Assembly: GCF_013407185.1 (NCBI RefSeq)
Contig: NZ_CP026995.1
Span: 591,578-623,577 of the forward strand
Source of the DNA: Nitrosopumilus ureiphilus
GTDB taxonomy: Archaea; Thermoproteota; Nitrososphaeria; Nitrososphaerales; Nitrosopumilaceae
DNA: 32,000 nt
Direction of reading: 5' to 3'
How positions within the stretch are numbered: the stretch's first letter is position 1; every line of letters begins with the position of its first letter. The translations under genes and the position numbers were made by a program. Below the pieces are notes generated by a model. That model did no database searches, was not told the DNA's origin, and saw nothing but the letters and a program-made list of their open reading frames with translations. Below are positions 205 to 27,184 of this stretch, in pieces.

Positions 205-218
205 TTTACAAATGTAAA
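205..218. promoter_or_regulatory. palindromic operator-like site TTTACAAATGTAAA (perfect)
   Basis: Perfect inverted half-sites. After a 9-nt gap comes TTATTTAT (228-235). The htrA ATG is 35 nt from the motif edge. Confidence 0.75.
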
Positions 219-252
219 ATACTATTGTTATTTATCTCATAATTTACAATCT

Positions 253-1398
253 ATGTGTATTAGATTGTTTTATTCAAATAGATCAAAGGTTTTGCTTGGA
301 GGAGTAGTTTTTAGTGTTGTTTTGCTATCGTTGGCTTCGCTGGTCATACTGCCCCCTGTATTAGCACAAGACAACTCTTACTCCTCTGAGAATCTACAAA
401 CAAGAAATGACTTTCAATCATCAGAAAAAATTTATTCATTAACTGAACTTTTTGATCGTTCTGAATTTGGAGTAGTAAGTATTACTGTTACAAAAGCATC
501 AGAGATTGGTGATTCTAACAGTGTTGGTTCAGGATTTGTATTTGACAAAAAAGGTCACATAATCACAAATAACCATGTTGTTGAAAACTCAAAGAAAATT
601 TCTGTCACGTTTATAGATGGAACTTCATATCGTGCACAAATTGTTGGCACTGATCCCTATGCGGATATCGCAGTAATCAAATTAGATGTGAGTCCTGAAA
701 AACTTTATCCTTTACCTATAGGAGATTCCTCAAGTCTTAGGGTGGGAGAAAAAATAGCTGCAATTGGAAATCCATTTGGGTTATCAGGTTCTATGACTTC
801 GGGTATTGTGAGTCAACTAGAAAGATTACTTCCAACAGGTGTTGGGTTTTCAATTCCAGATGTAATTCAAACAGACACTGCCATTAATCCTGGAAACTCA
901 GGAGGTCCTCTACTTAACATGAAAGGGGAGGTAGTAGGCATAAACACTGCGATTTATTCTAATGATGGTAGTTTCTCAGGTGTTGGGTTTTCAATTCCGT
1001 CTAACGTTGTTTTAAAAATTGTACCAATACTGATCAAAGAAGGAAGTTATCAACACCCATGGGTTGGAATATCTAGTGTAAATATTACTCCTGATATTGC
1101 AGAATTATTGAAACTTGAAGATGCAAAAGGTGTCTTGATCATGACAGTAGTAAAAGATAGTCCGGCTGACAAGGCAGGACTAGTAGGATCCTCTCAAACA
1201 GCAGTTGCAGATGATATTGAATATACAGTAGGGGGAGACATCATTTTATCAGTCGATGGAAACGAGGTAAGAAAAATTGATGACATTTTAACTCATCTGC
1301 AGCGCAATAAAATTGTGGGAGATGAATTAAATCTGGAAATACTACGTGATGGAAAAATAATTAATATCATTTTGACTCTTGAAGAAAGACCACAATAA
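253..1398 (+). CDS. htrA: HtrA/DegP-family serine protease with C-terminal PDZ domain, secreted
   Basis: N-terminal hydrophobic signal. Catalytic His (TNNHVV), Asp (DIAVIK) and Ser (GNSGGPL) motifs. PDZ-like C-terminal region. Confidence 0.93.
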   Translation: MCIRLFYSNRSKVLLGGVVFSVVLLSLASLVILPPVLAQDNSYSSENLQTRNDFQSSEKIYSLTELFDRSEFGVVSITVTKASEIGDSNSVGSGFVFDKKGHIITNNHVVENSKKISVTFIDGTSYRAQIVGTDPYADIAVIKLDVSPEKLYPLPIGDSSSLRVGEKIAAIGNPFGLSGSMTSGIVSQLERLLPTGVGFSIPDVIQTDTAINPGNSGGPLLNMKGEVVGINTAIYSNDGSFSGVGFSIPSNVVLKIVPILIKEGSYQHPWVGISSVNITPDIAELLKLEDAKGVLIMTVVKDSPADKAGLVGSSQTAVADDIEYTVGGDIILSVDGNEVRKIDDILTHLQRNKIVGDELNLEILRDGKIINIILTLEERPQ

Positions 1399-1402
1399 TA
1401 AA

Positions 1403-1949
1403 ATGACAATATTCAAGTATTCGGTTTTATTTTTTCTTGTTTTTAATTTTAATTTTTAATCCAGCTAGTGCTGAAACTGTCAAAATTCCTGAATGAGTTT
1501 TTACAGTACATGGTTTTTGGACTGATGAGAAAATTCCTGATGAAGAATTGCCACTATGCTAACTTATCTGGAGAAAAATGATGTTGTGGATCTTATTTTG
1601 CATAAAACCTATTGTGTTAAAACAAATTTTTTACTGTCTAACGCAAAATCAAAACACTGAATAATATTCATCTTGTAGTGACGGCTGGTATGTTGCAGGA
1701 TATTTTGTGCCTGTAGAGAAAGATTGTGCCGGGAAATTTATTGGAATCAACATTGATGAAGAACCACGAGAATTTAGACAAGATTTTACCGATGCCATAA
1801 AGATAAAGGACTGGGGCAAAATACTATCTGGCAATTATCTGGGTTGGTATGACTCCATTAAAGGAAAATATATTGATCTATTTGCTGGAGAAGGAAAACT
1901 AGATGAAACATTTTGTGTTACAAGTTATGACAATAAAGTTTGCCAATAG
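1403..1949 (+). pseudogene. decayed secreted-protein gene (signal peptide plus interrupted body)
   Basis: ATG at 1403 encodes a signal-like peptide (MTIFKYSVLFFLVF) that stops at 1457-1459 in a T-run. The next frame continues NPASAETVKIPE, then has TGA (1494-1496) where W would be expected (IPEW), then in-frame stops at 1560 and about 1663. Only the last ~94 codons (to 1949) stay open. Confidence 0.45.
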
Positions 1950-1950
1950 T

Positions 1951-2292
1951 CTATGATAATTTTTCCAATAATTCTTGTTTTTTTGGAATTCCAGTAAATT
2001 CTAATTTATCATCAATAACAACTCCTGGTGCTGTGAAGATGGGATATTTTTCCAAGTATTCTGGTTTTTCTGTGACATCAATTATGTCATAGAGCATGTT
2101 CATCTCATCTAACATTTGTTCTACAACTTTGCAATTTCCACAAGATGGTGTTGTCAAAATTTCAATCTTATGATTCATTTTCAAATTGTCCTGGATTGCT
2201 CTCAAATGCCCATCTGCAACTAGCACAGCAAAAATGGTATTCTTTTCCTTTGTAGGATAATTTTTCTCCCTTGTCACCAACTTCCATTCCAC
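1951..2292 (-). CDS. small thioredoxin/glutaredoxin-fold protein (CGNC active site)
   Basis: MNHKIEILTTPSCGNCKVV... has the typical small thioredoxin-fold layout. Lies 12 nt downstream of ccdA on the same strand. Start may be the internal Met at 2178. Confidence 0.75.
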   Translation of the reverse strand: MEWKLVTREKNYPTKEKNTIFAVLVADGHLRAIQDNLKMNHKIEILTTPSCGNCKVVEQMLDEMNMLYDIIDVTEKPEYLEKYPIFTAPGVVIDDKLEFTGIPKKQELLEKLS

Positions 2293-2304
2293 ATACTGGA
2301 TCTT

Positions 2305-3297
2305 TCATCTATTTGCCTCCCTTAGTCTACGAACCGAAAGTACAAAAATTGGACTTGCTATTAGTATTGCTAACAAAACTGTGAAAAAATTCTTAAAAAT
2401 CTGTACATCATTATGGCCATGTTCGTGCTCATCCATCTCAAATTCCGCTGGAATTGGAGTAATTTCAATCAAAGTATTCCACCCTTGATGGATGAATGTT
2501 TCCTCGTACCATTCATGACCCTCCGGAAGTCCATTAATGATCAAAAATGCACCTATAACTATCAGCATCCAACCAGATGCTCTCTCAATTGATTCTCGTT
2601 TAACTGTAAGACTTTTTGTTGCGTTAATTCCAATCACTGCAAGTACTGACATCAAAATCAATGGAATTGCTCTTCCAACCCCATGAACTACTCCTAATGA
2701 AGCACCTACTTCGATACTACCAGTACCAGCAATGTAAATGAGAAGCCAGTAAAATAAAGGATTAGGACATCCAACTCCTGCATTCCCTAACAGCAAACCC
2801 ATGAAAAATGATTTTGTGTATTCACCTCGCTTTTGTATAAATTTAGGAGTGCCTGAATATGATGGTAGTCTTAGAGATATAATTTTTAATTGTGATAATC
2901 CAAAAATAAAAGCAGCAATTCCTGCAATCAAAAACATGATGGTGGATGCTTGATCTAATGATGCGCTTTGCCCGATAGCTGCTATTGCTATACCATAAGA
3001 CGCAATAGTTATGGTTAATCCCAAACCAAAAAGTAAAGCCATGGACAATCCTTTCTTGTAACCTTTACCCATACTCAATGGAACAATAATGAAAACAAGT
3101 GGTAACGTACATGGTAAAACTATCATGGACAATCCCGCTACATATGCAATTACAATCCACGAAAGATATGTTGTGTGTTCTTTTCCGTCAATTGTAAAAT
3201 TTGTTCCAAACGAAAATACAATTCCAAGAAAAATTAATGAAAATAAAGCAAATGAAATAATCACCATGGATTTTTTTGCTAGTACAATTGTTGACAT
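2305..3297 (-). CDS. ccdA: CcdA/DsbD-family transmembrane thiol-disulfide electron transporter with His-rich tail
   Basis: Multi-TM protein with the two family Cys motifs (LPCTLPLV and GVGCPNPLF). C-terminal EMDEHEHGHND segment followed by one more TM. Confidence 0.85.
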   Translation of the reverse strand: MSTIVLAKKSMVIISFALFSLIFLGIVFSFGTNFTIDGKEHTTYLSWIVIAYVAGLSMIVLPCTLPLVFIIVPLSMGKGYKKGLSMALLFGLGLTITIASYGIAIAAIGQSASLDQASTIMFLIAGIAAFIFGLSQLKIISLRLPSYSGTPKFIQKRGEYTKSFFMGLLLGNAGVGCPNPLFYWLLIYIAGTGSIEVGASLGVVHGVGRAIPLILMSVLAVIGINATKSLTVKRESIERASGWMLIVIGAFLIINGLPEGHEWYEETFIHQGWNTLIEITPIPAEFEMDEHEHGHNDVQIFKNFFTVLLAILIASPIFVLSVRRLREANR

Positions 3298-3334
3298 GTT
3301 ATCATAATCCTATTTCTATACTTAACAAGTAGAC

Positions 3335-3348
3335 TTTACAAATGTAAA
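3335..3348. promoter_or_regulatory. palindromic operator-like site TTTACAAATGTAAA (perfect)
   Basis: Perfect site. On the gene (minus) side there is a 9-nt gap, then TTAAGTAT (3325-3318). The ccdA start codon is 38 nt from the motif edge. Confidence 0.75.
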
Positions 3349-3386: not shown

Positions 3387-4052
3387 TCATAGCATGGATT
3401 CAATTATTTTTTCAAATACTGAATATGGCTGTGGTCCAACAACTGTCTCTTGGAAGCCATCTGGACCTACAATGAAAAACGTAGGGGTGCCAGTAACTCC
3501 ATTATTTTGTGCCTCAGATGTGTTAAATTGTACACGTTTTTGGTATTTTGCAGAATCTAGGCAACTCACAAACATATCCATGTTTAATCCTAGATTGTAT
3601 GCATATCCCTTTAGGCTGTCTGAATTTGCCCAACCATTATCAATTGATAACTGATTTGAATACAAGAATCCGTGATAGTCCCAATATTTTCCTTGCTCTT
3701 CTGCGCAATAACTTGCAATTGATGCAGGTATGGAATCTTTTCCTAGGAATGCAATATCTACAAAAATTAGTTTAGCTTTTCCGGTCTCTATGTAATTGGT
3801 TACAATATCAGGTTTTGTATTTAGAAACCATTTTTTACAGTTTGGACATTGATAGTCTCCAAACTCAATTATTGTGATTGGTGCATTTGAAGACCCCCTG
3901 ATTGGAGAACCCAGTGAGGTGTCAATAGTACCGATTTTTCTATTCATATCAAGATTAATGTCTTCAGAATTTGTAGGAATTTGATAAAATAAAACAAGTA
4001 TCACCAATACAAGACCTATGCTAGATGCATAGATGATATGTTTAGGTTTCAA
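3387..4052 (-). CDS. DsbA-like thiol:disulfide oxidoreductase, membrane-anchored or secreted
   Basis: N-terminal TM followed by a thioredoxin-fold CxxC (FGDYQCPNCKKW). TTG start preceded by GGAGAGGG. Confidence 0.87.
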   Translation of the reverse strand: MKPKHIIYASSIGLVLVILVLFYQIPTNSEDINLDMNRKIGTIDTSLGSPIRGSSNAPITIIEFGDYQCPNCKKWFLNTKPDIVTNYIETGKAKLIFVDIAFLGKDSIPASIASYCAEEQGKYWDYHGFLYSNQLSIDNGWANSDSLKGYAYNLGLNMDMFVSCLDSAKYQKRVQFNTSEAQNNGVTGTPTFFIVGPDGFQETVVGPQPYSVFEKIIESML

Positions 4053-4114: not shown

Positions 4115-4128
4115 TTTACAAATGAAAA
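4115..4128. promoter_or_regulatory. operator-like site TTTACAAATGAAAA (1 mismatch)
   Basis: One half-site mismatch. 9-nt gap, then TTAAGTAT (4105-4098) on the minus side. 63 nt from the DsbA-like start. The flank is about 80% identical to the flank of site 3335. Confidence 0.6.
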
Positions 4129-4134
4129 TGGGAT

Positions 4135-4596
4135 TTAGAATCTACTTAGCTCAACAATGATTTTTCCTTTCATCCATGGGTGAGGTTCACAGTGATAAGG
4201 TACCTCTTGAGGCTCAGTAAACAGAAACTCGTAGGAATCCCCCGGTTTTATGACGCCAATAGAACCAAAATCTCCACTGTAACTATCCGTTGTTCTGTGA
4301 TCAGGAGTTACCGTATGCGCAGCATCATCATTGTTTTGCCAAATTACTTTATTATTAATCCCCAACAGTACATTGGATGTGTTTGGAACATAGTTTTCAT
4401 TTCCTTCAATTACCGCACCGGGAACAATTTCAATTGTAAATTCTTCTTCAGGATTTAAGATATATTCAGCTACAGAGGGTTTTGCTAAAGATTCAGGAAG
4501 ATAAAATGATGTGTAAAAAACTACAGATGCAGACATGCCAATGATTACTGCAATAACTCCTATGCCATATGCATGACTCGATGATGGAGAGCTCAA
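4135..4596 (-). CDS. plastocyanin/cupredoxin-like blue copper protein, N-terminally anchored
   Basis: Type-1 Cu ligand pattern H...C-x2-H-x2-M (AAHTVTPD ... YHCEPHPWMKGKIIV). N-terminal TM. Confidence 0.88.
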   Translation of the reverse strand: MSSPSSSHAYGIGVIAVIIGMSASVVFYTSFYLPESLAKPSVAEYILNPEEEFTIEIVPGAVIEGNENYVPNTSNVLLGINNKVIWQNNDDAAHTVTPDHRTTDSYSGDFGSIGVIKPGDSYEFLFTEPQEVPYHCEPHPWMKGKIIVELSRF

Positions 4597-4635: not shown

Positions 4636-4649
4636 TTTACAATTGCAAA
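4636..4649. promoter_or_regulatory. operator-like site TTTACAATTGCAAA (1 mismatch)
   Basis: 9-nt gap, then TTAAATAC (4626-4619) on the minus side. The cupredoxin ATG is 40 nt from the motif edge. Confidence 0.65.
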
Positions 4650-5462: not shown

Positions 5463-5476
5463 TTTACAACTGTAAA
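5463..5476. promoter_or_regulatory. palindromic operator-like site TTTACAACTGTAAA (perfect half-sites)
   Basis: 9-nt gap, then TTAAGTAT (5486-5493) on the plus side. No tracked ORF follows before the next site at 5727. Confidence 0.6.
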
Positions 5477-5726
5477 CTATATCCATTAAGTATCTTTTAG
5501 ATTCATGTCATACATGCTTAATGACTCTGTTCGTTTCACATGTTATTGAGCAGAAATATTTTATGGGGATTTTTTATGAAATCTTAATCCTAATGGGATT
5601 TCCCCCTTCAAAATTCAGAATTTGATAATTCTTCTAACTATTTTTGAAAAACGATGTGATTAAAAATGAAATATCGTTATTTCTGATTTTATATTATAGT
5701 GTAGATTATGTGTATTAATTTAGAAT

Positions 5727-5740
5727 TTTACATTTGTAAA
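5727..5740. promoter_or_regulatory. palindromic operator-like site TTTACATTTGTAAA (perfect)
   Basis: 9-nt gap, then TTTAATAA (5750-5757). The ATG of the Met-rich protein is 43 nt from the motif edge. Extended symmetry ...TGTAAAGTAC. Confidence 0.75.
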
Positions 5741-5782: not shown

Positions 5783-6496
5783 ATGGTGAACCAATCTGCA
5801 TGGATAGGAATTGCTATTGGGGTCTTTTTTGTGGGGCTTGTCATTGGATTTGGGATTTTTACAGGTACCATGAATATTGGAAATATGCCAATCCAAAACC
5901 AACAAGCAATGATGCAAGATCCACAATTTCAACAACAAATGATGAATCAATTACTAAATGATCCTGAAACCAGAAATCAAATGATGGACACTATGACACA
6001 AGATCCATCTGCCATGAGATCATGGATGGAAAATACTCAACATGTAGAGGAAATGGCCACTATAATGAGAGAGAATCATGATTTTGCTATGAGGATGATG
6101 TATACAATGATTGAAGACTCTGCTTTACGATTGCAGATGATAGGTCATATGACAGAAAATCCTGAGGCGATGCAACAAATGATGAATATGATGAATTCAG
6201 GTATGGCAAATCAGAGTATGATGGATTCTGGAATGATGATGGGCAATATGTCAGGAGGAATGATGAATTCAGGTATGATGAATCAAGACATGATGATGCA
6301 AATAATGCAAGATCCTGAAACAAGAGAAAAAATGATTCAGATAATGTCTAAACATGTATCTGAAATGCAAGAATTACTTTCTTCAGAATTACCTGATGGT
6401 GAGTTTAACACACAGATGACAGAATTGATGCAGAATCACATGAAAGAAATGCAAGTTCTAATGCCAAATCAACCAATGCATCAATCCATGAAGTAG
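5783..6496 (+). CDS. membrane-anchored, extremely Met/Gln-rich protein (candidate Cu(I)-binding)
   Basis: N-terminal TM. By hand count about 50 Met in 237 aa, in runs such as MMDSGMMMGNMSGGMMNSGMMNQDMMMQIMQ. Repeated DPETR-x-(Q/K)M motif. The exact 18-nt repeat atgatgaattcaggtatg occurs at 6188 and 6260. Confidence 0.75.
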   Translation: MVNQSAWIGIAIGVFFVGLVIGFGIFTGTMNIGNMPIQNQQAMMQDPQFQQQMMNQLLNDPETRNQMMDTMTQDPSAMRSWMENTQHVEEMATIMRENHDFAMRMMYTMIEDSALRLQMIGHMTENPEAMQQMMNMMNSGMANQSMMDSGMMMGNMSGGMMNSGMMNQDMMMQIMQDPETREKMIQIMSKHVSEMQELLSSELPDGEFNTQMTELMQNHMKEMQVLMPNQPMHQSMK

Positions 6497-6509: not shown

Positions 6510-7193
6510 ATGAAGAATAGTAGAAAAACAATTTTAATTGTAATTCCTATTGGAATCTTGATTGCAATGTTTCTATCCTCATTCTTATTTCAACATTTTA
6601 TTTCAGTTCAATCTGGAAACGAACTTGATAAAGTTTCAACAAACACATCTTTTGATACGTTGTCTTCTTTTAATTCGCCCGTAATTGGTTTCTCTGATGC
6701 ACCTGTAACAATTATCGTTTTTAATGACTATCAATGCTTATCCTGTAAAACATGGTATGAAAATTCCTATGAAGATATTTCAAAAAAATTAATTGAAACG
6801 AAAAAAGCAAAAATAATATTTTTAGATTCAGAACCTGTAGGAAATGATTCTATTTTGATATCACAAGCAACATTTTGTGCGGATGAACAGGGAAAATATT
6901 CAGAATATCAAGAAGTATTGTTTTCCTCACAACAAAAAATTGATGGATGGGCAAAATCGGTTCAATTGAAGAATTTTGCAATGGATTTGAATCTGAATGT
7001 GGCGTCATTTGAGAGATGTTTAGACTCTGGAAAATATGAAAAAGATGTAATAACAAATATAGATTATGCAAAAAGTATCGGAGTAGAAAAAATTCCAATT
7101 TTCAAAATTGTTAATTTTGAAGGAAAAGAACACGTTCTCAAAGGAGGCATTTCAAGTACAGTTTTTGAAAATATTGTGGAACAATTTCAATAA
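6510..7193 (+). CDS. DsbA-like thiol:disulfide oxidoreductase
   Basis: N-terminal TM and CxxC (FNDYQCLSCKTW). Starts 13 nt after the Met-rich ORF, so probably the same operon. Confidence 0.85.
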   Translation: MKNSRKTILIVIPIGILIAMFLSSFLFQHFISVQSGNELDKVSTNTSFDTLSSFNSPVIGFSDAPVTIIVFNDYQCLSCKTWYENSYEDISKKLIETKKAKIIFLDSEPVGNDSILISQATFCADEQGKYSEYQEVLFSSQQKIDGWAKSVQLKNFAMDLNLNVASFERCLDSGKYEKDVITNIDYAKSIGVEKIPIFKIVNFEGKEHVLKGGISSTVFENIVEQFQ

Positions 7194-7213: not shown

Positions 7214-7435
7214 CTACTGCCAAACACAGTTTCTTTTTTCATGTATTTCTTTTCTGGCTCTATTACCTCTAGGCGTAATTCGTAATTTTACACTACAGCA
7301 AGGACATCGAATGCCCTGATATGTGAGGAATATCTCGCATACTGGGCACAATTTTTGCCCGTTTTCATACCTGTGTCGTCCTTCATATCCTGTCGCTCTG
7401 TACTTTGTACAGACTCCTTTACATGTAGTTACCAT
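7214..7435 (-). CDS. small CPCC zinc-ribbon protein with basic tail (paralog family, copy 1)
   Basis: CKGVC...C-x2-C...CPCC followed by LRITPRGNRARK. Paralogous to 16617-16775 and 28738-28938. Confidence 0.7.
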   Translation of the reverse strand: MVTTCKGVCTKYRATGYEGRHRYENGQKLCPVCEIFLTYQGIRCPCCSVKLRITPRGNRARKEIHEKRNCVWQ

Positions 7436-7479: not shown

Positions 7480-7493
7480 ATTACATCTGTAAA
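7480..7493. promoter_or_regulatory. operator-like site ATTACATCTGTAAA (1 mismatch), bidirectional
   Basis: TATA-like boxes at a 9-nt gap on both sides (TTAAATAT on minus, 7470-7463; ATTAATAC on plus, 7503-7510). Start codons lie 45 nt (7435, minus) and 40 nt (7533, plus) away. Confidence 0.65.
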
Positions 7494-7532: not shown

Positions 7533-7736
7533 TTGCACTTTAACAAAAAAACAAAAATGATCATTTTACTTTCATTGATTTGGTTTATTATTACACTGCC
7601 ATTGCCTTGGATAATTAACAATCCCCTTGTTTCTGAATCTTCTTTTTATACAATATTGGGAATTATCGGCATCATGTCTATTCCATTTGTTATGTTGGGA
7701 GTGGCATGGAGTCTAAAGCCTGAATTGACTACTTAA
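7533..7736 (+). CDS. small two-TM membrane protein
   Basis: Hydrophobic 67-aa ORF with a TTG start at 7533, or ATG at 7557. Confidence 0.4.
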   Translation: MHFNKKTKMIILLSLIWFIITLPLPWIINNPLVSESSFYTILGIIGIMSIPFVMLGVAWSLKPELTT

Positions 7737-9377: not shown

Positions 9378-9391
9378 TTTACAATTGTAAA
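9378..9391. promoter_or_regulatory. palindromic operator-like site TTTACAATTGTAAA (perfect)
   Basis: Lies in the divergent region between the PhaC-like gene and copA, 112 nt from the copA ATG. Confidence 0.6.
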
Positions 9392-9455
9392 ATACAATAT
9401 TGAAATATGATGAATAGATTTTGTTGAAAAATGAAATCAAGCATGAGAATCATCA

Positions 9456-9472
9456 TTTGTCTTTAAGACAAA
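9456..9472. promoter_or_regulatory. distinct 17-bp palindrome TTTGTCTT-T-AAGACAAA upstream of copA
   Basis: Perfect 8+8 inverted repeat ending 31 nt before the copA ATG. GGAG lies 10-13 nt before the ATG. Confidence 0.55.
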
Positions 9473-9502
9473 TCGTACTCATTAAAATTATCGGAGATTA
9501 GT

Positions 9503-11668
9503 ATGGCAAAAGATCCTGTTTGCGGCATGATTGTAAATGAAAAAACAGGAATATCTTCTGAATTTGGTGGTAGAAAATTCTACTTTTGTAGTCCTGTTTG
9601 CCAGAAAACATTCACAGAACCTGAAAAAGAGCTTTCACGAATGAAGAAGCGAATCTATGTGGCTACTTCAGGAGCTTTGGCCCTTGCAATAATTCGTGGA
9701 GCTCTGTATCTTGGTGTTGCAGCTGGTGCAATCACAGTTACATGGGTTCCTTTTCCAGAAATACCGTTTCTCTCATATGGCTTGCTTCTTTTCATAATTG
9801 TGACTCCAGTACAATTCATTGGAGGGTGGACGTTCTATGTTGGAGGGTACCATGCAATTATTAGAAGAACTGCAAACATGGACTTGCTAATTTCAATTGG
9901 AACACTCACTGCATATATCTACAGTACCATAGTTCTTTTCTTTCCTGATGCAATTCCAGGCGAAGAAAAGTTCGTCTATTTTGAGGTATCTGCTGTAATT
10001 ATTGCCTTTGTTCTTTTGGGAAAATACATGGAAGAGGCAATAAAAAAGAAAAGTTCATCTGCTGTAAGAAAATTACTTGACTTGAGTCCACCAATGGCAT
10101 GTGTGATTCGTGAGGGCTCAGAAATGGAAATTCCTTCTAATCAGATCAAGATGGATGATGTGATGATCGTAAAACCTGGTGAAAAAATTCCAACTGATGG
10201 AATTATCATTACAGGTGAATCCTCTATAGATGAAAAAATGATTACAGGTGAAAGCCTCCCTGTTGGAAAAAAGCCGGGTGATCAAGTTATTGGGGCTACT
10301 GTTAACAAACAAGGATTGCTTCATATCAAAGCAACCAAAATAGGAAAAGATACTGCATTATCTCAAATTGTTCATGTAGTAGAGCAAGCACAGTCTTCTA
10401 CTGCTAAAGTACAAAGGATGGCTGATTCTATTGCTGCGAAATTTGTTCCTTCTGTGGTAGGAGCAGCCGTCATAACATTTCTACTTTGGTATTTTGTTAT
10501 AGGTGATTTTGTTGCAGGCTTGCTTGCATTTGTTGCAGTTATGATTATTGCATGCCCTTGCGCACTTGGGGTAGCTACGCCTGCTGCATTAATGGTTGGA
10601 GTTGGAAAGGGTGCCGAATCAGGAATTCTAATCAGAGGCGCAGAATACTTGGAACGCTCACAAAAAATCAACACAATCGTATTTGACAAAACAGGCACCA
10701 TAACAAAAGGAGAGCCAGAGGTTACAGACATAGTGTCTTTGAATGAACTAAGTGAAAAACAAATTATTGAATATGGTGGAACAGTAGAATCGGGTTCTGA
10801 ACATCCTATCGCTAAAGCTGTTGTGAATAAAATGAAAGAAATGAATATTCCTCTTACTACTCCTGAAGAATTTGAATCATTAAACGGATTGGGGGTGAAA
10901 GCTATGGTTCATGGGAAAAAAATCTATACTGGAAACAGGAAAATGATGAAACAGTTTGGCATTGATGTTCGTCTTGCTGAACAAAACATGGAAAGACTAG
11001 AGTCAGAAGGAAAGACAGCAATAATGGTGATAATTGATGATAAAATAGAGGGCATCATTGCAGTTGCAGATTCATTAAAGGAAACCTCTCAAATGGCAAT
11101 TTTTGCACTTACTGATCTTGGGATAGAGTCAATTATGATTACAGGTGACAATGAAAAAACAGCACAAGCAATAGCAAAAAAAGTTGGTATTGAGAAAATC
11201 ATTGCAAATGTTTTACCCGCAGATAAAGCCAAAGAGATCAAGAAACTACAAGCACAAGGAAAATTTGTTGCAATGGTGGGTGATGGAATTAATGATGCCC
11301 CCGCTTTAGCACAAGCTGATATAGGGATTGCAATTGGTAGTGGTTCTGACATTGCAAAGGAAACAGGAGGAATAATTCTGATCAGAGATGATCTAATGGA
11401 TGTTTCTCGTGCAATTCGATTGAGCAGAGCAACCATGAAGAAAATCAAACAAAATCTTTTCTGGGCATTTGCATACAACTCTGGCGGAATTCCAATTGCA
11501 GCTCTAGGTCTACTTAGTCCAATCTTTGCAGCTGCTGCTATGGCTCTAAGTTCAATTTCAGTCATTGCAAATTCTTCTATGCTTAAGCGATACAATATTA
11601 CAAGTGGAGAAGAAAAATTAATGAAATCTGAGATGTTTCAAAAACAAAAACTTGAGGCTATGAGATAA
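9503..11668 (+). CDS. copA: copper-translocating P1B-type ATPase with N-terminal TRASH/YHS-type domain
   Basis: TGES, CPC (IACPCALG), DKTGT and GDGINDAP motifs. N-terminus DPVCGMIV...[12 protein letters not shown] replaces a GMxCxxC HMA domain. Confidence 0.96.
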
Positions 11669-14169: not shown

Positions 14170-14183
14170 TTTACAATTGTAAA
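14170..14183. promoter_or_regulatory. palindromic operator-like site TTTACAATTGTAAA (perfect)
   Basis: Perfect site 71 nt from the prs start. No clear TATA-like box at the 9-nt gap on the prs side. Confidence 0.5.
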
Positions 14184-14287: not shown

Positions 14288-14301
14288 TTTATAATTGTAA
14301 A
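14288..14301. promoter_or_regulatory. TTTATAATTGTAAA (1 mismatch): operator-like site or simply the TATA box
   Basis: Only 29 nt from the ATG at 14330. The TTTATAAT part is itself a good TATA box at a suitable distance for a leaderless mRNA. Confidence 0.4.
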
Positions 14302-15440: not shown

Positions 15441-15454
15441 TTTACATTTGTTAA
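15441..15454. promoter_or_regulatory. operator-like site TTTACATTTGTTAA (1 mismatch)
   Basis: In tandem with the site at 15484; starts are 43 bp apart. Confidence 0.55.
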
Positions 15455-15483: not shown

Positions 15484-15497
15484 TTTACATTTGTAAA
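15484..15497. promoter_or_regulatory. palindromic operator-like site TTTACATTTGTAAA (perfect)
   Basis: 9-nt gap, then TTATTTAT (15507-15514). The cupredoxin ATG is 42 nt from the motif edge. Confidence 0.75.
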
Positions 15498-16892: not shown

Positions 16893-17234
16893 TCATTTTT
16901 TTGTAATCTTGTTTTTGGAAAATGAAATTGAGGGCTCAAATTTTGTAATGCTGATTTTGGCATCTTTGATTAAACTCTGATAAAATGTTGCAATATGTCC
17001 TGATTCTGTAAAATCTGTTTTTTCTGTAATTAAGGAGCATTCTTTGAGACTTTGGATTTGTTTGTATACTGAGCTGAGTGGAATTTTCAATTCTTTAGAA
17101 ATATCTAGAACTGTTTTTGGTTCTTTAATTATTGAAAATAAAATGTATCTTGATTCTAAATGTATAAGTTCATTGAACATTTTATGAGAAATATCGTATT
17201 TTTCTACTAGTGATGGTTTGAGTTTTGCTGCCAA
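16893..17234 (-). CDS. ArsR-like winged-helix transcription regulator
   Basis: ILFSIIKEPKTVLDISKELKIPLSSVYKQIQSLKE is a typical wHTH. The start is uncertain: TTG at 17234, or the internal MFNEL. Confidence 0.6.
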   Translation of the reverse strand: MAAKLKPSLVEKYDISHKMFNELIHLESRYILFSIIKEPKTVLDISKELKIPLSSVYKQIQSLKECSLITEKTDFTESGHIATFYQSLIKDAKISITKFEPSISFSKNKITKK

Positions 17235-17977: not shown

Positions 17978-18020
17978 TTTTTATTTTCATGCCTATCTAT
18001 ATCCAATTTGAACCCCAATT
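17978..18020 (+). repeat. short dispersed repeat, copy 1 (tRNA-Glu trailer/T-arm-like)
   Basis: First 22 nt are identical to 21518-21539. Also contains tctatatcc and atttgaaccc, which are exact matches to 30256-30264 and 30290-30299 at the tRNA-Glu locus. Confidence 0.6.
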
Positions 18021-18365: not shown

Positions 18366-18379
18366 TGTACAATTGTAAA
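18366..18379. promoter_or_regulatory. operator-like site TGTACAATTGTAAA (1 mismatch)
   Basis: Intergenic. An extra TGTAAA half-site lies 10 nt downstream. Confidence 0.45.
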
Positions 18380-18502: not shown

Positions 18503-18516
18503 TTTTCATTTGTAAA
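18503..18516. promoter_or_regulatory. operator-like site TTTTCATTTGTAAA (1 mismatch)
   Basis: 9-nt gap, then TTTAATAT (18526-18533). The next tracked ORF starts 134 nt away, at 18650. Confidence 0.5.
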
Positions 18517-18649: not shown

Positions 18650-20329
18650 ATGAACTTAAAACAGCTAAATATCTTTCATGGGAAGTTTTTCCATCTTTGT
18701 TTGTTGGCATTTGGTTCTGGTGCTATAGTTATGTCCATGGAATTAATTATCAGTCGTGTTCTTACGCCTGTTTTTGGTAGTTCTACTTACACGTGGGGTA
18801 GTTTGATAGGTCTGATTTTGACAGGCTTGAGTCTGGGATATTTTCTTGGTGGTAAGATTTCCGACAGAGATCCTACATTTAGAAAAATTTGCTCTGTTGT
18901 ATTTACTGCAGGACTGTACATTGTATTTGTGCCATTTATTGCACCTGCGATATTGGGATTCACATTAAATGACTTGCCTCAAAATCAATTTTCTTCTTTA
19001 TTTGCAACTTTTGCTTTAGTTTTCTTTCCTACAACTTTATTGGGATTTGTTTCTCCTTATGTGATCAAACTTGGTACTGTAACACTTCGTCAAGTTGGAA
19101 ATGTTTCAGGAACTTTGTATTCTATATCTACTGTAGGTAGTATCTTTGGAACCTTTTTGACCATTTTTGTTTTGATTCCAACCCTCGAAGTAAGAATTGT
19201 TCTTTTTGGATTGGGAATTACATTGATGATTGTCTCTTTGTTAGGATTAAAGAATTTGCCTAAAATATTAACAATTGCTGTAATCTTAATTTTGTTTACT
19301 CCTTCATCTTCCATAGTTACAGGTTTGATGCCTCATACTGGAACTGTGATTGTTGAAACAGAAACTGAGTATAGTCATCTTGATGTTGTAGATTCTGATA
19401 ACAAACGAACTCTATATCTTAATGGAATGCGACATAGTCAAATGGACAAAGACAATCCGAATGACCTAACTTTAACGTATACCAAGTATTTTCATTTGGG
19501 GCAATTGTTTAATTCCTCACTCGAAAAAATCTTGTTTGTAGGGGGTGGTGGTTTTTCAGGCCCAAAAAACTTCTTAGACACTTATCCCAATTCCTTTATT
19601 GATGTTGTTGAAATTGATTCTCAAGTTATAGATGTGGCAAAAACCTATTTTTCATTAAAAGATAATTCTAGGTTACAAATTTTCAATGAAGATGCAAGAA
19701 CATTTTTGATGAATTCTGATGATAAATATGATTTAATAATTTTAGATGCTTTTGCTACTGACTATGTTCCATTTCACTTGCTAACACAAGAGTATTTTCA
19801 AATATTACAAGATCATCTTCAACCTGACGGCGTAGTTGTTTCAAACATGATAGGCTCACTTGAAGGAGATACCTCTAATCTGCCTAGTTCCGTATACAAA
19901 ACAATGACTAGTTTATTTCCAACTGTCTATGTTTTTACTACTGCCGAGAACAATCTAAATATTGTACAAAATCTAATTTTTGTAGCTATTAATAATAATG
20001 AACAATTGACTAGAGTTGAACTTGAAAATTTGTCTATACAAAACAATGCTAATAACTTGTTAGCAGATACAAAATATTTGGAAAATTACCATATGTCTGG
20101 AATGAGAACTGATTCTATTCCAATTCTTACTGATAATTTTTCTCCAGTAGAAATTATGATAAATCCTGTTACTAGCCAACCTTTTTTCGATGAAGATTCT
20201 ATATTTTCACAAGACGAATCAAGAATTTGGTTTAGTGAAAGTACTTCAGTAAAAATTGGACTTTTGATTGCAGTCGTATTTACATGGTTAGTATTTTTCA
20301 AAAGTACGTGGAAAAATACTTTGAATTAA
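18650..20329 (+). CDS. membrane-fused spermidine synthase-like (class I SAM-dependent) protein
   Basis: N-terminal multi-TM region, then ILFVGGGGF, VEID, NEDARTF and DLIILDAF motifs of aminopropyl/methyltransferases. C-terminal TM. Confidence 0.78.
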   Translation: MNLKQLNIFHGKFFHLCLLAFGSGAIVMSMELIISRVLTPVFGSSTYTWGSLIGLILTGLSLGYFLGGKISDRDPTFRKICSVVFTAGLYIVFVPFIAPAILGFTLNDLPQNQFSSLFATFALVFFPTTLLGFVSPYVIKLGTVTLRQVGNVSGTLYSISTVGSIFGTFLTIFVLIPTLEVRIVLFGLGITLMIVSLLGLKNLPKILTIAVILILFTPSSSIVTGLMPHTGTVIVETETEYSHLDVVDSDNKRTLYLNGMRHSQMDKDNPNDLTLTYTKYFHLGQLFNSSLEKILFVGGGGFSGPKNFLDTYPNSFIDVVEIDSQVIDVAKTYFSLKDNSRLQIFNEDARTFLMNSDDKYDLIILDAFATDYVPFHLLTQEYFQILQDHLQPDGVVVSNMIGSLEGDTSNLPSSVYKTMTSLFPTVYVFTTAENNLNIVQNLIFVAINNNEQLTRVELENLSIQNNANNLLADTKYLENYHMSGMRTDSIPILTDNFSPVEIMINPVTSQPFFDEDSIFSQDESRIWFSESTSVKIGLLIAVVFTWLVFFKSTWKNTLN

Positions 20330-20357: not shown

Positions 20358-21056
20358 TTATTTTTGTTTAATATGGTTATTCTTTGATTTTACAATTTTT
20401 ACATATGATACAATTTGTAAAACTATGACTATGATACTCATTACAATAAATGGAATTGTGAATGTGCTTTGTGGAGGGACCGATTTGTGAAATGATTCTG
20501 TATAATGCATAAAAAGAAAGTATGCTGTATGGATTGCAACAAGATAAAACACAATGTTTGAACCTGTATGTAGCCACTTCCAAGATGATGCTCCTAACCA
20601 TTTCATGGCCTTGTCTGATGAGGTTAATGCAAGAATTGCAATCCACAAGATTGCTACAAAACCTATCACGTTTGCCAATCCGAACCCTGGCTCCATTCTA
20701 GCAATTCTATCTAATTGTGGAACAAACTCATAACCCAAGAACTTGAGAACATCCCAATTTGCCCATCCATTCACAATTAAGATTCCATGAATTGATGCCA
20801 TAATTGCAAACCATATGCCCGTTTCTCTTCTCCATGAAAGCAAAGAATTCAAACGTGGCCACAATTTACTTAATGGTCCAATTATTAATACCACAAAAAG
20901 TAATGAATAGCCAACATCACCAAATGCACGCCATAATCGCATTTCATCATCCCATTCATAATGTGAAACCCAAAAAATAAACATTAGAAAAATAGCAATA
21001 ATTCCAACCAGTATATGTCGCCTAACAAAATTATTTTTTATTTTAATTTTGTTCAT
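20358..21056 (-). CDS. ferric-reductase-like / MsrQ(YedZ)-like haem-binding membrane protein
   Basis: Six-TM-type profile with conserved-looking His residues in the TMs (MASIHGILIV, VAIHTAYFLFMH). Confidence 0.5.
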   Translation of the reverse strand: MNKIKIKNNFVRRHILVGIIAIFLMFIFWVSHYEWDDEMRLWRAFGDVGYSLLFVVLIIGPLSKLWPRLNSLLSWRRETGIWFAIMASIHGILIVNGWANWDVLKFLGYEFVPQLDRIARMEPGFGLANVIGFVAILWIAILALTSSDKAMKWLGASSWKWLHTGSNIVFYLVAIHTAYFLFMHYTESFHKSVPPQSTFTIPFIVMSIIVIVLQIVSYVKIVKSKNNHIKQK

Positions 21057-21159: not shown

Positions 21160-21173
21160 ATTACAATTGTAAA
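21160..21173. promoter_or_regulatory. operator-like site ATTACAATTGTAAA (1 mismatch)
   Basis: 9-nt gap, then TTAAGTAT (21150-21143) on the minus side. 104 nt from the start codon at 21056. Confidence 0.55.
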
Positions 21174-21201: not shown

Positions 21202-21215
21202 TTTTCAAATGTAAA
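21202..21215. promoter_or_regulatory. operator-like site TTTTCAAATGTAAA (1 mismatch)
   Basis: In tandem with the site at 21160; starts are 42 bp apart. Confidence 0.45.
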
Positions 21216-21517: not shown

Positions 21518-21560
21518 TTTTTATTTTCATGCCTATCTACATCCATTTTCATCACCAAAT
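21518..21560 (+). repeat. short dispersed repeat, copy 2
   Basis: ttttattttcatgcctatcta is shared exactly with copy 1. atccattttcatc is shared exactly with copy 3. Confidence 0.6.
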
Positions 21561-22544: not shown

Positions 22545-22558
22545 TTTACAATTGTAAA
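22545..22558. promoter_or_regulatory. palindromic operator-like site TTTACAATTGTAAA (perfect)
   Basis: Lies in a divergent region. 9-nt gap, then ATTAATAC (22535-22528) on the minus side. 72 nt from start 22473 and 63 nt from start 22621. Confidence 0.65.
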
Positions 22559-23174: not shown

Positions 23175-24020
23175 TTATTTTTCCACAGGATTTCCTATCA
23201 TGTTACCCCATTCAGTCCAAGAACCATCATAGTTTCGAACCTGGGGATATCCAAGTAGATATTTTAGGACAAACCAACTGTGAGAAGATCTTTCTCCAAT
23301 TCGGCAATAACAGATTACATCTTTGTCTGGAGTTACACCTTTTGGCTCATAGTTTTGTCGTAGTTCTTCAACTGCTTTGAAGGTTCCATCAGCGTCATTG
23401 ACTGCAGTTGCCCATGGAATATTATTTGCGCCCGGAATATGCCCGCCTCTTTGTGCATGCTCCATCGGATATTCTGGCGGAGCAGTGATTTGACCAGTAA
23501 ACTCTGCAGGCGATCTAACATCAACCATTACAGTGTCTTCTTTGTCTAATGCTCTGCTTACATCAAACAAGTATGCACGTAATCCCTCATCTGGAGGTTG
23601 TGCAACATATGTTGTTGATGGTAATTGTGGTTCATCAGTAGTGTAATCTCTACTTTCTAATTCCCATTTCTTTCGTCCACCATTCATTATTTTGAGATTC
23701 TCATGACCATAGATTTTGAAAACCCAGAAAACAAATGCTGCAAACCAGTTGTTAAAGTCACCATAAAGAATCACTTCAGTGTCAGCAGTAATTCCGTTTT
23801 TAGCCATTAAAGCCTCAAATTGTTTTTTGCTAATGATGTCTCTTGTAACTGGATCATTAATGTCACGTTTCCACCAAATCAGAGTTGCGTCATTAATGTG
23901 ACCTTTTTGATATCCATTAACTGGATCATAATCAACTTCAACTATTTTTCTATGTTCATTTGGGGGATTTTGTGATACCCATTCAGTATCAACTAAAACT
24001 TCAGGATGTGCGTAACTCAT
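23175..24020 (-). CDS. tandem-rhodanese thiosulfate sulfurtransferase
   Basis: Two rhodanese-like halves. Active-site loop CYCRIGERSS in the C-terminal half. Confidence 0.88.
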   Translation of the reverse strand: MSYAHPEVLVDTEWVSQNPPNEHRKIVEVDYDPVNGYQKGHINDATLIWWKRDINDPVTRDIISKKQFEALMAKNGITADTEVILYGDFNNWFAAFVFWVFKIYGHENLKIMNGGRKKWELESRDYTTDEPQLPSTTYVAQPPDEGLRAYLFDVSRALDKEDTVMVDVRSPAEFTGQITAPPEYPMEHAQRGGHIPGANNIPWATAVNDADGTFKAVEELRQNYEPKGVTPDKDVICYCRIGERSSHSWFVLKYLLGYPQVRNYDGSWTEWGNMIGNPVEK

Positions 24021-24057: not shown

Positions 24058-24071
24058 TTTACAATTGAAAA
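24058..24071. promoter_or_regulatory. operator-like site TTTACAATTGAAAA (1 mismatch)
   Basis: 9-nt gap, then CTAAATAT (24048-24041) on the minus side. The rhodanese ATG is 38 nt from the motif edge. The divergent DsbA-like gene starts 94 nt away. Confidence 0.65.
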
Positions 24072-24164
24072 ATTAAAATTCAAAAAGTCTAAGCATTATG
24101 AAATATGTTGTAATGAAATTATTTATTAAAAAAGAAATAATAAGTTCAAAAACTAATTTTTATC

Positions 24165-24809: not shown

Positions 24810-24957
24810 TTATAGTCACAATAAACGGATTTACAAAATATGCAATTCATGCATATAAAATTGCTTTGGATATTGTAAAAAATATAATTCAATTTTATAA
24901 TATTTTGTAACTAAGATTAGAACACTTTATGAGTTCCTAGTTCAGGTTTAAACAAGT

Positions 24958-25623: not shown

Positions 25624-25862
25624 ACTTGTTTCAAATCGAACTTTTTCTTATTAATGCAGCCTTAAGATAAAAATTTAGGATTTGAACTTCTATGCGTCTT
25701 GAGATTAATCCTCATCTAAGATCATCAATCTTATATTTAATGGGACTTTGTATGTTGTAGACTTGGCCCAAAGCTGATGTCTTCATTGATTGTAATGGGG
25801 TTAATCCTCTATTCCAATTTCTTATTTTATAATATCAACATCCTTTTATTTACCATGTATAG

Positions 25863-26726
25863 ATGATGTGTGTGAGGACATTAGCTTCAATCTTATTGCT
25901 TTTTACAATAATTTCTGTTATCAGTATTTTTCCATCTGCTTTTGCACAAGTCAGCATTACAACAGGGCCTGGTAATTTGAGTACTCCTGGATGTGAGGAA
26001 ACAAATGAATGCTACACTCCAAGTGAACTAATAGTACCTGTTGGTGAAAAAATAATAATGACCAACATTGACACTACAGGAATACACACATTTACTTCTG
26101 GAACCGTAGATGGTTTTTCTCCTAGCTCTGATGGAAAGTTTGATTCTGGAATATTAAACGCAGATCAATCCTTTGAATTTTCTGCAGATGCTGCAGGTGA
26201 ATATCCATACTACTGTATGTTACATACTTGGATGCAAGGTACAATTACAGTACAAGAAGCTATGGCTGAACCTGTACTTCAAATGGCAACTATAGTACAA
26301 CCTGATGAAATGATGGCAGAAATTATTGCTAGTGATGGAGTTGCAAATGAGGCGATGACAATTGATCTTATTATTACCGATCTTGAAGGTAATGGCGTAG
26401 AACACATTACATACAATATCCAGGCAACTCAAGGTTCTGAAATTTTACTAAATGAAGAGGGTCATATGCACAAGGGCACGATTACTAATAATCATGTGAC
26501 TTCTACTTTACCTGTAGATGCGTCAGATGACATGCCTGTTGTAATTAGCGTTGAATCTGTAGGATTTGGACACGATGAACAATATGTGGATTTTTCAAGT
26601 GAGATAACCACAAAACAAGTAGTTCCAGAATTTGGTACCATAGTAATGATGATTCTCGTAGTTGCAATAGTTAGTATGGTTGCAGTAACTACAAAGTCTA
26701 AACTCAGCATCATGCCAAGAATTTAG
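25863..26726 (+). CDS. cupredoxin-domain protein with PEFG-CTERM sorting signal
   Basis: GIHTFTSG ... YYCMLHTWMQGTITV (H, C, H, M ligands). C-terminal VPEFG followed by a hydrophobic helix and a basic tail. Confidence 0.88.
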   Translation: MMCVRTLASILLLFTIISVISIFPSAFAQVSITTGPGNLSTPGCEETNECYTPSELIVPVGEKIIMTNIDTTGIHTFTSGTVDGFSPSSDGKFDSGILNADQSFEFSADAAGEYPYYCMLHTWMQGTITVQEAMAEPVLQMATIVQPDEMMAEIIASDGVANEAMTIDLIITDLEGNGVEHITYNIQATQGSEILLNEEGHMHKGTITNNHVTSTLPVDASDDMPVVISVESVGFGHDEQYVDFSSEITTKQVVPEFGTIVMMILVVAIVSMVAVTTKSKLSIMPRI

Positions 26727-26779
26727 ATAACTTCTGTTACTTTTCTAAAAATATGTTGCATCATAAACAAAAGTCTAAT

Positions 26780-26890
26780 CTATGAAAATGGAGTTTTGAT
26801 TATTCCATTTGCCACTAGAAACATCAATGCTACTGGAACGCCAGTTCCTATTAAAATTCCAACTAAAACCAAACCATCTTTTTTATCCAT
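26780..26890 (-). CDS. 36-aa single-TM membrane peptide (not in ORF track)
   Basis: Hand translation: MDKKDGLVLVGILIGTGVPVALMFLVANGIIKTPFS. A perfect operator site lies 46 nt upstream. A degenerate paralog is at 18154-18264. Confidence 0.5.
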   Translation of the reverse strand: MDKKDGLVLVGILIGTGVPVALMFLVANGIIKTPFS

Positions 26891-26935
26891 TATCCATCAA
26901 AAATACGTTCTCTATTCTTTGTTTAATACTTTCGA

Positions 26936-26949
26936 TTTACATTTGTAAA
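26936..26949. promoter_or_regulatory. palindromic operator-like site TTTACATTTGTAAA (perfect)
   Basis: 9-nt gap, then TTAAACAA (26926-26919) on the minus side. 46 nt from the small-ORF ATG at 26890. Confidence 0.65.
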
Positions 26950-27015
26950 TCTAAAAAAAATTATTCCTGAAAATTATTCAAATCCATGGGAGTTGAATCT
27001 TAGAAAAATTATTTT

Positions 27016-27029
27016 TTTACATTTGTAAA
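27016..27029. promoter_or_regulatory. palindromic operator-like site TTTACATTTGTAAA (perfect)
   Basis: 9-nt gap, then TTAAGTAT (27039-27046) on the plus side. Its flank resembles that of site 5463. The next tracked ORF is 156 nt away. Confidence 0.6.
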
Positions 27030-27184
27030 CTATGATTATTAAGTATATGTCTACATATTTTTCTAATGTGATATTTTCTAACAATATTAAATTAAAAGAA
27101 TACAATACATTGTTAAGCAAATTTTATTAATTTGAAGTAAATTATGAAAATGAACAAGGGAAATGGGCCAAAATTAAGGGCAGT

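Follow-up and report, generated by a model that had tools for sequence, protein, structure and literature searches.

The first 27 kb of a 32,000-nt stretch of the Nitrosopumilus ureiphilus genome (assembly GCF_013407185.1, contig NZ_CP026995.1, positions 591,578 to 623,577 of the forward strand; hereafter, the window) carry 20 intergenic copies of a short palindrome, TTTACA-N2-TGTAAA, typically at a fixed distance from a TATA-like box. A site of this kind also precedes most of the compared homologs of a gene whose 3' end lies at the left edge of the window and whose product combines an Lrp/AsnC-type helix-turn-helix (HTH) domain with a TRASH domain. There is a good probability that the palindrome, in its extended form ACTTTACA-WW-TGTAAAGT, is the operator of this CopR-like factor, which would be copper-sensing, autoregulated and probably activating. 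The genes of the 27 kb most likely constitute a clustered copper-homeostasis and envelope protein-repair regulon. The relatives of its HtrA assign the window to the Nitrosopumilaceae, ammonia oxidizers of the sea. Ammonia-oxidizing archaea rely on copper enzymes for their energy metabolism, and copper availability can limit nitrification.

Palindromic sites and their promoter geometry

The pattern TTTACANNTGTAAA (TTTACA-N2-TGTAAA) has 10 exact matches in the whole window, against 0.03 expected from 100 dinucleotide shuffles. Allowing at most one mismatch yields 20 sites, 10 perfect and 10 with one mismatch, where 0.46 are expected and the largest shuffle count is 3. The G+C content of the window is about 32%. 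All 20 sites are intergenic on a gene map combining open reading frames (ORFs), Pfam and NCBIfam, which is 79% coding (P ~2e-14), and the only two matches with two mismatches (4427 and 29129) both fall within coding sequence. At least one palindrome is present in 14 of the 21 intergenic regions before 27.2 kb and in none of the six after it; the last site is at 27016..27029, and there is no palindrome after 27.1 kb. Because this right end (27100-32000), which encodes a SHOCT-domain protein, an Sso10a-like winged HTH (wHTH) protein, a tRNA-Glu and several unassigned ORFs, is free of the motif, the cluster has a sharp right boundary near 27.1 kb.

A gap of exactly 9 nt followed by an A/T-rich octamer was found on 15 promoter sides of 14 sites, the site at 7480 being bidirectional. 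The octamers are TTAAGTAT (five times), TTATTTAT and ATTAATAC (twice each), and TTAAATAT, TTAAATAC, TTTAATAA, TTTAATAT, CTAAATAT and TTAAACAA (once each). To obtain a broader picture, 227 unique sites from the window and from loci linked to the factor were pooled, and the TATA-like box was used to orient the promoters. The 176 promoters so oriented, which come from many loci, have the consensus AcTTTACAATTGTAAAGT-N7-TTAAaTAT, and the distance to the start codon, over all 227 sites, peaks at 37-46 nt. The site thus stands at a fixed distance upstream of the TATA box and is clear of both this box and the transcription start site (TSS), the positions of which were inferred from the sequence. As the extended site ends 7 nt before the TATA-like box, it is predicted to abut the position of the B recognition element (BRE), and the core site-to-start spacing of 34-45 nt suggests short or absent leaders.

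A first-pass annotation, made from the letters of the window, had proposed most of these features. All 20 palindromes that it listed were recovered, 10 exact and 10 with one mismatch, with none extra; their intergenic placement and absence past 27.1 kb reappeared on our gene map; and every octamer that it gave was found again after the 9-nt gap. The longer form of the site, ACTTTACA..TGTAAAGT, is genuine, being seen in the consensus of the 176 promoters. For the nine genes singled out in that annotation (htrA, ccdA, two cupredoxins, and those for the Met-rich protein, the Zn-ribbon protein, a 67-aa membrane ORF, the rhodanese and a 36-aa ORF), the spacing from motif to start is 34-45 nt.

Pairs of sites 42-44 bp apart, start to start, or about four helical turns, occur in 14 distinct contexts, including 15441/15484 and 21160/21202 in the window, 8793/8836 in locus L082, and L137, L141, L145 and others; one clade has two sites ahead of the factor gene. 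This spacing suggests cooperative binding of two dimers, despite the lack of the RAM domain in the factor (see below).

An element generic to the promoters of this lineage, or a dispersed repeat like a miniature inverted-repeat transposable element (MITE) or a duplicated promoter cassette, would in principle also account for the motif, which always comes with a TATA-like box and is present in two-thirds of the intergenic regions up to 27 kb. This explanation is almost certainly wrong. The motif is missing from all six intergenic regions after 27.2 kb. As a control, we used 47 Nitrosopumilales htrA loci (734 kb) with no homolog of the factor; these contain no perfect site and eight one-mismatch sites, which is the chance rate, and because factor-less loci have the motif at chance level, a generic element, the alternative that the first-pass annotation had itself raised, is excluded. 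The similarity between the copies stops at about 40 nt and covers only the motif and the TATA-like box, so that a mobile element or dispersed repeat was dismissed, and the MITE or duplicated-cassette idea was rejected on the same grounds. In orthologous promoters, the flanks diverge while the motif and the TATA box stay fixed: the ccdA and htrA promoters keep motif, gap and TATA box, and in the ccdA promoter the proximal half-site, gap and TATA box are conserved in four genomes.

The HTH-TRASH factor and its link to the palindrome

The window contains just the C-terminal 66 codons of the factor gene (3-203, plus strand); the frame is open from base 3, continues beyond the left edge and matches Pfam Arc_trans_TRASH (E=1.8e-8). 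The product aligns end to end with the C-terminus of Nitrosopumilus proteins of 143-183 aa, and the N-terminal HTH was read from full-length homologs. The homolog in locus L001 (P0013) matches HTH_AsnC-type (E=5.9e-14) and HTH_24 (E=2.4e-12), followed by Arc_trans_TRASH, and the best PDB matches are Lrp-like proteins of Pyrococcus (E ~3e-8). The factor has 679 homologs, the best 120 of which are 78-90% identical. The HTH region is near-invariant across the homologs, which accords with the invariant operator, and the linker diverges; the TRASH cysteine pattern C-x2-C-x20-CC-x2-C is invariant among 26 aligned sequences.

The RAM domain (AsnC_trans_reg) had no match in the short Nitrosopumilales proteins (P0121, P0122, P0124, P0127 and the L001 copy), and an AlphaFold model of the factor places, with low confidence, no folded domain between the HTH and TRASH. 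Relatives of about 200 aa in Nitrososphaerota and Bathyarchaeota have a RAM domain between HTH and TRASH, and the short factor matches these long-form HTH+RAM+TRASH proteins at both ends. Remote relatives looked up by cluster name were only proteins of Bathyarchaeota and Nitrososphaerota metagenome-assembled genomes (MAGs). By its architecture, the factor appears to be related to CopR/CopT, the copper regulator of archaea, but to be RAM-less, with a length of about 143 aa, or up to 183 aa in some homologs.

Several features vary among the homologs. The Nitrosopumilus clade (L081, L085 and others) carries an additional C-(D/E)-C pair in the HTH-TRASH linker, at residues ~73-75, and a clade of 53-63% identity (L137-L163) is devoid of it. 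Some copies (183 aa) have an added hydrophobic, His-containing C-terminal tail.

Loci were fetched through the factor from Nitrosopumilus sp. b3, other assemblies and 80 metagenome loci (factor identity 53-85%). In 58 of 65 distinct upstream regions, with factor identity of 53-90%, a site with at most one mismatch ends 30-38 nt before the factor start; three more regions have a site with 2-3 mismatches at the same position, and another has a perfect site further upstream. Across all 168 loci, perfect sites are confined to those linked to the factor, plus one isolated match in L165. A variant of the palindrome with a 3-bp spacer was not found in the four factor-linked loci checked. The closest syntenic locus, L001, where HtrA is 78% identical, has 12 sites in 14 kb. 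This contig (JAJDED010000042.1) is filed as a Planctomycetota MAG, probably through a binning error, given that its gene content and 34% G+C are plainly those of Nitrosopumilaceae. A ZIP-family transporter gene lies immediately upstream of its factor gene.

On this evidence, the HTH-TRASH protein is by far the best candidate for the binder of the palindrome, and we consider the assignment of factor to operator highly probable. The first-pass annotation had instead suggested the local wHTH and Zn-ribbon proteins for testing; neither is likely to be the regulator, the better candidate being the AsnC-HTH/TRASH protein with its 3' end at 3-203. A different local binder, be it the 73-aa Zn-ribbon protein, an ArsR/TrmB-like HTH protein or the small wHTH protein, with the TRASH factor merely one of the targets, is quite improbable. 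The Zn-ribbon gene is itself linked to the motif in 18 loci, and the other two proteins do carry HTH domains. However, only the TRASH factor gene has a fixed-position site in 58 of 65 loci, along with an invariant HTH; no site stands before the ArsR-like or the wHTH gene, the latter of which lies in the motif-free part and encodes what looks like an Sso10a-type chromatin protein; and the half-sites match the box known for an HTH-TRASH protein.

Composition of the predicted regulon

For factor-linked loci, we recorded the first gene downstream of the sites, with the counts below; CopA/YHS and DUF192 are counted in loci other than the window.

Factor itself: 55 loci
ccdA/dsbD: 42 loci, the second most frequent direct target
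Zn-ribbon protein: 18 loci, 19 members
Met-rich protein: 15 loci
DsbA-like protein: 11 loci
HtrA: 10 loci
CopA/YHS: 6 loci
BNR protein: 6 loci
DUF192: 4 loci
Kelch protein: 4 loci

In many lineages, the local sites number only two or three, and the expanded, clustered version is found in the window, L001 and L081. The first-pass reading of the palindrome as the operator of a single regulator, set at a fixed TATA distance on copper/redox genes for mostly exported products, is supported by this cross-locus comparison. The Zn-ribbon-like protein (68-73 aa, four Cys pairs) is among the most conserved members; possible roles are those of a metal buffer or chaperone in the cytoplasm, or of a co-regulator. 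In L081 and L083, the ccdA-trx gene cluster includes a 46-aa YHS gene.

The sites and genes along the window are as follows (TM, transmembrane segment).

3..203, plus strand: 3' end of the candidate regulator gene
205..218: perfect site, rightward htrA promoter; TATA-like TTATTTAT at 228-235, 34 nt to ATG; conserved in L001 and L081
253..1398, plus strand: htrA, trypsin-like protease with PDZ domain and N-terminal TM/signal (Pfam)
1951-2292, minus strand: thioredoxin (Pfam), in one operon with ccdA (1951..3297)
2305-3297, minus strand: ccdA/dsbD-like membrane thiol reductase (Pfam)
3335..3348: perfect site, leftward ccdA-trx promoter; TATA TTAAGTAT, 37 nt to ATG
3387..4052, minus strand: DsbA-like thiol:disulfide oxidoreductase 1, exported, TM-like N-terminus (Pfam)
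4115..4128: one-mismatch site, leftward promoter of DsbA-like 1; TATA TTAAGTAT, 62 nt to start
4135..4596, minus strand: cupredoxin 1, plastocyanin/azurin family, membrane-anchored (Pfam)
4636..4649: one-mismatch site, leftward promoter of cupredoxin 1; TATA TTAAATAC, 39 nt to start
5463..5476: perfect site, rightward; TATA TTAAGTAT; downstream only a 34-aa ORF (5521-5625) or an untranslated RNA
5727..5740: perfect site, rightward promoter of the Met-rich and DsbA-like 2 operon; TATA TTTAATAA, 42 nt to ATG
5783-6496, plus strand: Met-rich (21% Met) membrane-anchored protein
6510-7193, plus strand: DsbA-like 2, in an operon with the Met-rich gene
7214..7435, minus strand: Zn-ribbon-like protein, 73 aa, 8 Cys, no Pfam family
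7480..7493: one-mismatch site, bidirectional; left, Zn-ribbon gene, TATA TTAAATAT, 44 nt; right, 67-aa ORF, TATA ATTAATAC, 39 nt
7533-7736: 67-aa two-TM ORF, right of site 7480
9378..9391: perfect site upstream of copA; TATA-like TGAAATAT; 111 nt to ATG, a long leader
9503..11668, plus strand: copA, copper-translocating P1B-ATPase with N-terminal YHS/TRASH (Pfam; NCBIfam TIGR01511, 575 bits against a cut-off of 397)
14170..14183: perfect site; rightward TATA-like TTATCTAC; 118 bp upstream of 14288
14288..14301: one-mismatch site, 28 nt before the ATG of the 245-aa protein, atypically close
14330-15067: 245-aa protein with 5 predicted TM, 15 His and an HAFEPDH motif; no Pfam match
15441..15454: one-mismatch site, 43 bp upstream of 15484
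15484..15497: perfect site, rightward promoter of cupredoxin 2; TATA TTATTTAT, 41 nt to ATG
15539-16573: cupredoxin 2 (Pfam), downstream of site 15484
16893-17234: ArsR/TrmB-like HTH protein, no site ahead of the gene
18366..18379: one-mismatch site; neither side has a TATA-like octamer after a 9-nt gap; 18503 follows 137 bp downstream
18503..18516: one-mismatch site; rightward TATA TTTAATAT; 133 nt to the spermidine-synthase-like gene
18650-20329: spermidine-synthase-like 7-TM protein; in L001, the listed TTG start of the ortholog comes 116 nt after a site (9849)
20358-21056: ferric-reductase/MsrQ-like TM protein; in L001, a site lies 96 nt ahead of the ortholog
21160..21173: one-mismatch site; leftward TATA TTAAGTAT; 103 nt to the MsrQ-like gene
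21202..21215: one-mismatch site, 42 bp from 21160, no TATA box of its own
22545..22558: perfect site between a gene for a 4-TM 146-aa protein and DUF192; left, TATA ATTAATAC, 71 nt; right, 62 nt
23175-24020: rhodanese, left of site 24058
24058..24071: one-mismatch site, leftward rhodanese promoter; TATA CTAAATAT, 37 nt to ATG; DsbA-like 3 is 93 nt to the right
26780-26890: 36-aa single-TM ORF, left of site 26936
26936..26949: perfect site; leftward TATA TTAAACAA, 45 nt to the ATG of the 36-aa ORF
27016..27029: perfect site, the last in the window; rightward TATA TTAAGTAT (27039-27046); next long gene 155 nt away
28412-28705: small wHTH protein, Sso10a-type chromatin protein by appearance, in the motif-free part with no site ahead
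30277-30351: tRNA-Glu(CTC), the sole match of the Rfam and tRNA scans of the window

The motif-bearing 27 kb encode three DsbA-like proteins and three cupredoxins, and most targets in the window have an N-terminal TM or signal segment. The 245-aa protein looks like a metal transporter. At the position equivalent to the 5463 site, L081 has a site with the same AC spacer.

Two further sequence elements were noted in the window. The 111 nt that separate the copA site from the copA start codon contain, at 9455-9473, a near-perfect palindrome or hairpin, ATTTGTCT-TTA-AGACAAAT, which may act as a leader structure or as a second operator; no copy was found in any other locus, and it folds no better than shuffles (z = -0.97). 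Direct repeats of 41 nt (TTTTTATTTTCATGCCTATCTATATCCA...) at 17978-18018, 21518-21558 and 27880-27920 (88% and 66% identity to the reference copy) are unrelated to the palindrome, and on the minus strand this family contains only non-conserved ORFs of 16-25 codons.

Signal, sign of regulation and relation to known systems

Under the proposed mechanism, a dimer of the factor would read the two half-sites abutting the BRE, its Cys-rich TRASH domain would sense cytoplasmic Cu(I), and the metal-loaded factor would help recruit transcription factor B (TFB) and the TATA-binding protein (TBP) from its position upstream of the BRE. Switched on in this way would be copper export (copA); envelope copper binding by the Met-rich protein and cupredoxins; the CcdA-thioredoxin-DsbA thiol chain, presumably to undo the disulfide damage that copper catalyses or to maintain copper ligands in reduced form; degradation of damaged proteins by HtrA; the MsrQ-like protein and the rhodanese; and the factor's own gene. 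The last of these follows from the promoter of the factor gene, which is laid out like those of the targets and so predicts positive autoregulation, if the factor is an activator.

The closest precedent is CopR of Pyrococcus furiosus (PF0739), an Lrp/AsnC-type HTH plus TRASH protein that binds a semi-palindrome, TTNNCAWWWTGNNAA, directly upstream of the BRE at copper-induced promoters, activates copA and represses its own gene, with the 14 most induced genes within 28 kb (PMC7830388). The likeness, assessed by architecture, not alignment, extends from the N-terminal HTH and C-terminal TRASH domain to the operator: compared with the TTNNCA-W3-TGNNAA of the P. furiosus cop box, the TT-TA-CA-WW-TG-TA-AA found here has the same half-site pattern around an A/T centre, and its position relative to the predicted BRE corresponds. 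In both cases, the regulon, a predicted one here, is clustered and includes copA and redox proteins (14 top genes in 28 kb there, 20 sites in 27 kb here), and the regulator's own gene is, or here would be, under its control. The first-pass annotation did not recognise the palindrome as any named operator; it is not without precedent, for the half-sites and the upstream-of-BRE position match the CopR box, apart from a spacer that is one base shorter. Unlike CopR, the factor described here is RAM-less, of about 143 aa, and its window copy ends without the C-terminal His stretch; an Lrp-like octamer is therefore doubtful. Furthermore, its own promoter has an activator-type layout, not an overlapping or repressing one, and its targets are mainly extracytoplasmic thiol-redox proteins, cupredoxins and HtrA, not iron and Fe-S genes.

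CopR/CopT of Saccharolobus solfataricus (SSO2652) and CopR of Thermococcus onnurineus (TON_0836) are likewise copper-responsive HTH-TRASH regulators, and thaumarchaeal CopT homologs have been reported to be 38% identical to SSO2652 (PMC7785015). Those systems regulate a compact cluster of two or three cop genes (copA with a TRASH/YHS chaperone), whereas here 9.3 kb separate the factor gene from copA, which has an operator site, the two do not form a neighbouring divergent pair of the copR-copA type, and the conserved core target is ccdA-trx. A long-form copR-like gene in a classical divergent copA/YHS-chaperone cluster was observed in L167 (2894-3000; Nitrososphaerota MAG JACPCU010000007.1). 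The palindrome was not convincingly found ahead of the long-form copR genes of L165 and L167: L167 shows no more than a single ACTTTACA half-site, 11 nt ahead of the ATG, and L165 has two TTACAA direct repeats (2940-2975), so the operator of the long-form factor may differ.

Boxes of the Lrp/AsnC family (feast/famine regulatory proteins, FFRP), such as those of Ss-LrpB and FL11, are 13-15-bp palindromes with an A/T centre. The present system shares with this family the HTH type, a short A/T-centred palindrome, frequent autoregulation and multiple phased sites, but differs in the lack of a RAM domain, the even-length centre and the probable effector, a TRASH-bound metal instead of an amino acid. 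Bacterial copper and envelope-stress regulons include CueR/CusR with copA, and scsABCD and degP under CpxR. Here, the likeness is only functional, consisting of a Cu exporter, DsbD/CcdA-like and thioredoxin-like periplasmic proteins and a DegP/HtrA protease, whereas the regulators (MerR family and two-component systems) and the promoter logic are unrelated. Among ammonia-oxidizing archaea, the only promoter motif that we found reported for copper-responsive genes is TTCSGSMTTTGWACYANT of Nitrososphaera viennensis, derived from genes induced by copper limitation and located 35-70 nt before start codons, including that of a dsbD-containing operon, with no regulator assigned (PMC7785015). It is unrelated in sequence to the palindrome and comes from a different lineage (soil group I.1b).

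With respect to the signal, copper appears likely, if with some reserve. The same operator and factor could instead respond to thiol or oxidative stress, or to another thiophilic metal (Zn, Ag, Cd, Hg), through TRASH and the linker CxC, which would make the targets an envelope disulfide-stress regulon. The most conserved targets are indeed thiol-redox genes (ccdA-trx in 42 loci, DsbA-like in 11), accompanied by HtrA, the MsrQ-like protein and the rhodanese, and TRASH is a general metal-binding module (PMC7830388). We nevertheless find this unlikely: a copper-type P1B-ATPase, YHS/TRASH chaperone genes, cupredoxins and a protein with 21% Met are among the direct targets, and the characterised HTH-TRASH regulators respond to copper. 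Copper itself damages thiols, so the two readings overlap.

For the sign of regulation, we lean towards activation. A repressor or dual regulator, in which the apo-factor would block TFB near or over the BRE, copper would derepress and autoregulation would be negative, appears rather unlikely, although there are precedents for it: CopR of T. onnurineus was reported to repress copA and itself, P. furiosus CopR represses its own promoter, and copper released CopR from DNA in gel shifts. The site at 14288, 28 nt from the ATG, would overlap the TATA box or TSS, a spacing more typical of repression, and tandem sites 42-44 bp apart could allow cooperative occlusion. On the other hand, on about 15 promoter sides in the window and in 176 promoters overall, the site ends 9 nt (7 nt in the extended form) upstream of the TATA box, not over the TATA box or TSS; the activating CopR site at P. 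furiosus copA is placed in the same way, and the promoter of the factor gene does not differ in layout from those of the targets.

Several observations weigh against the interpretation of the palindrome as the operator of a copper-sensing activator. CopR is reported to be an activator in Pyrococcus and Saccharolobus and a repressor in Thermococcus, and because the signs differ between genera, the sign cannot be transferred to the factor. The RAM domain through which Lrp/CopR proteins oligomerise is missing from the factor, and its AlphaFold model has a pLDDT of 58, only the HTH being confident (shallow alignment). The CopR/CopT assignment comes from the domain architecture and the long-form relatives, not from alignment to PF0739, SSO2652 or TON_0836. 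The spacer is 2 bp here versus 3 bp in the P. furiosus cop box, so that the symmetry centre lies between bases. Individual promoters also deviate: the sites at 18366 and 21202 are devoid of a TATA-like octamer at the fixed gap, that at 14288 is just 28 nt from the ATG, and 103-133 nt separate copA, the MsrQ-like and the spermidine-synthase-like genes from their sites. For the BRE region, the set of generic promoters, defined without TSS data, was too noisy for a clear contrast with the regulon promoters. The target list is biased towards the neighbours of the factor gene, through which loci L085-L164 were picked. Binding, the copper signal and the sign of regulation, that is, the functional roles proposed for operator and factor, are comparative readings of what was observed: the sites with their geometry, the set of targets conserved across loci and the association with the factor gene.

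A more far-reaching possibility, which we put forward tentatively, is that the RAM-less HTH-TRASH factor is the master switch of the Nitrosopumilales copper economy. Metal binding by TRASH, complemented by the linker CxC in the Nitrosopumilus clade, would drive dimerisation on the 14-bp, even-spaced palindrome; the factor would form a self-activating loop; and the core output would be an extracytoplasmic module for thiol redox and protein quality control (CcdA-Trx-DsbA-HtrA), not copper export, with lineage-specific expansion to cupredoxins, CopA and the Met-rich protein.

In our literature search, no operator or regulon of this kind was found described for Nitrosopumilus or ammonia oxidizers, and a 2020 transcriptome study of an ammonia-oxidizing archaeon stated that the regulation of cop genes "remains an open question" (PMC7785015). 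The regulator family and its logic are known, whereas the protein architecture, the operator spacing, the autoregulatory layout and the target set are new, in a group of organisms of ecological importance. The conserved cis-element, a named candidate regulator and a cross-genome list of targets make the question of cop regulation directly testable, and the motif could be used as a marker of copper-stress genes in metagenomes. The CopR paradigm would be extended to a shorter protein without the Lrp oligomerisation domain and to a differently spaced operator, which bears on the mechanism of archaeal HTH-TRASH sensors. If the master-switch reading is true, it would represent a mechanistically distinct branch of archaeal copper sensing in an abundant, highly copper-dependent ocean microbe.

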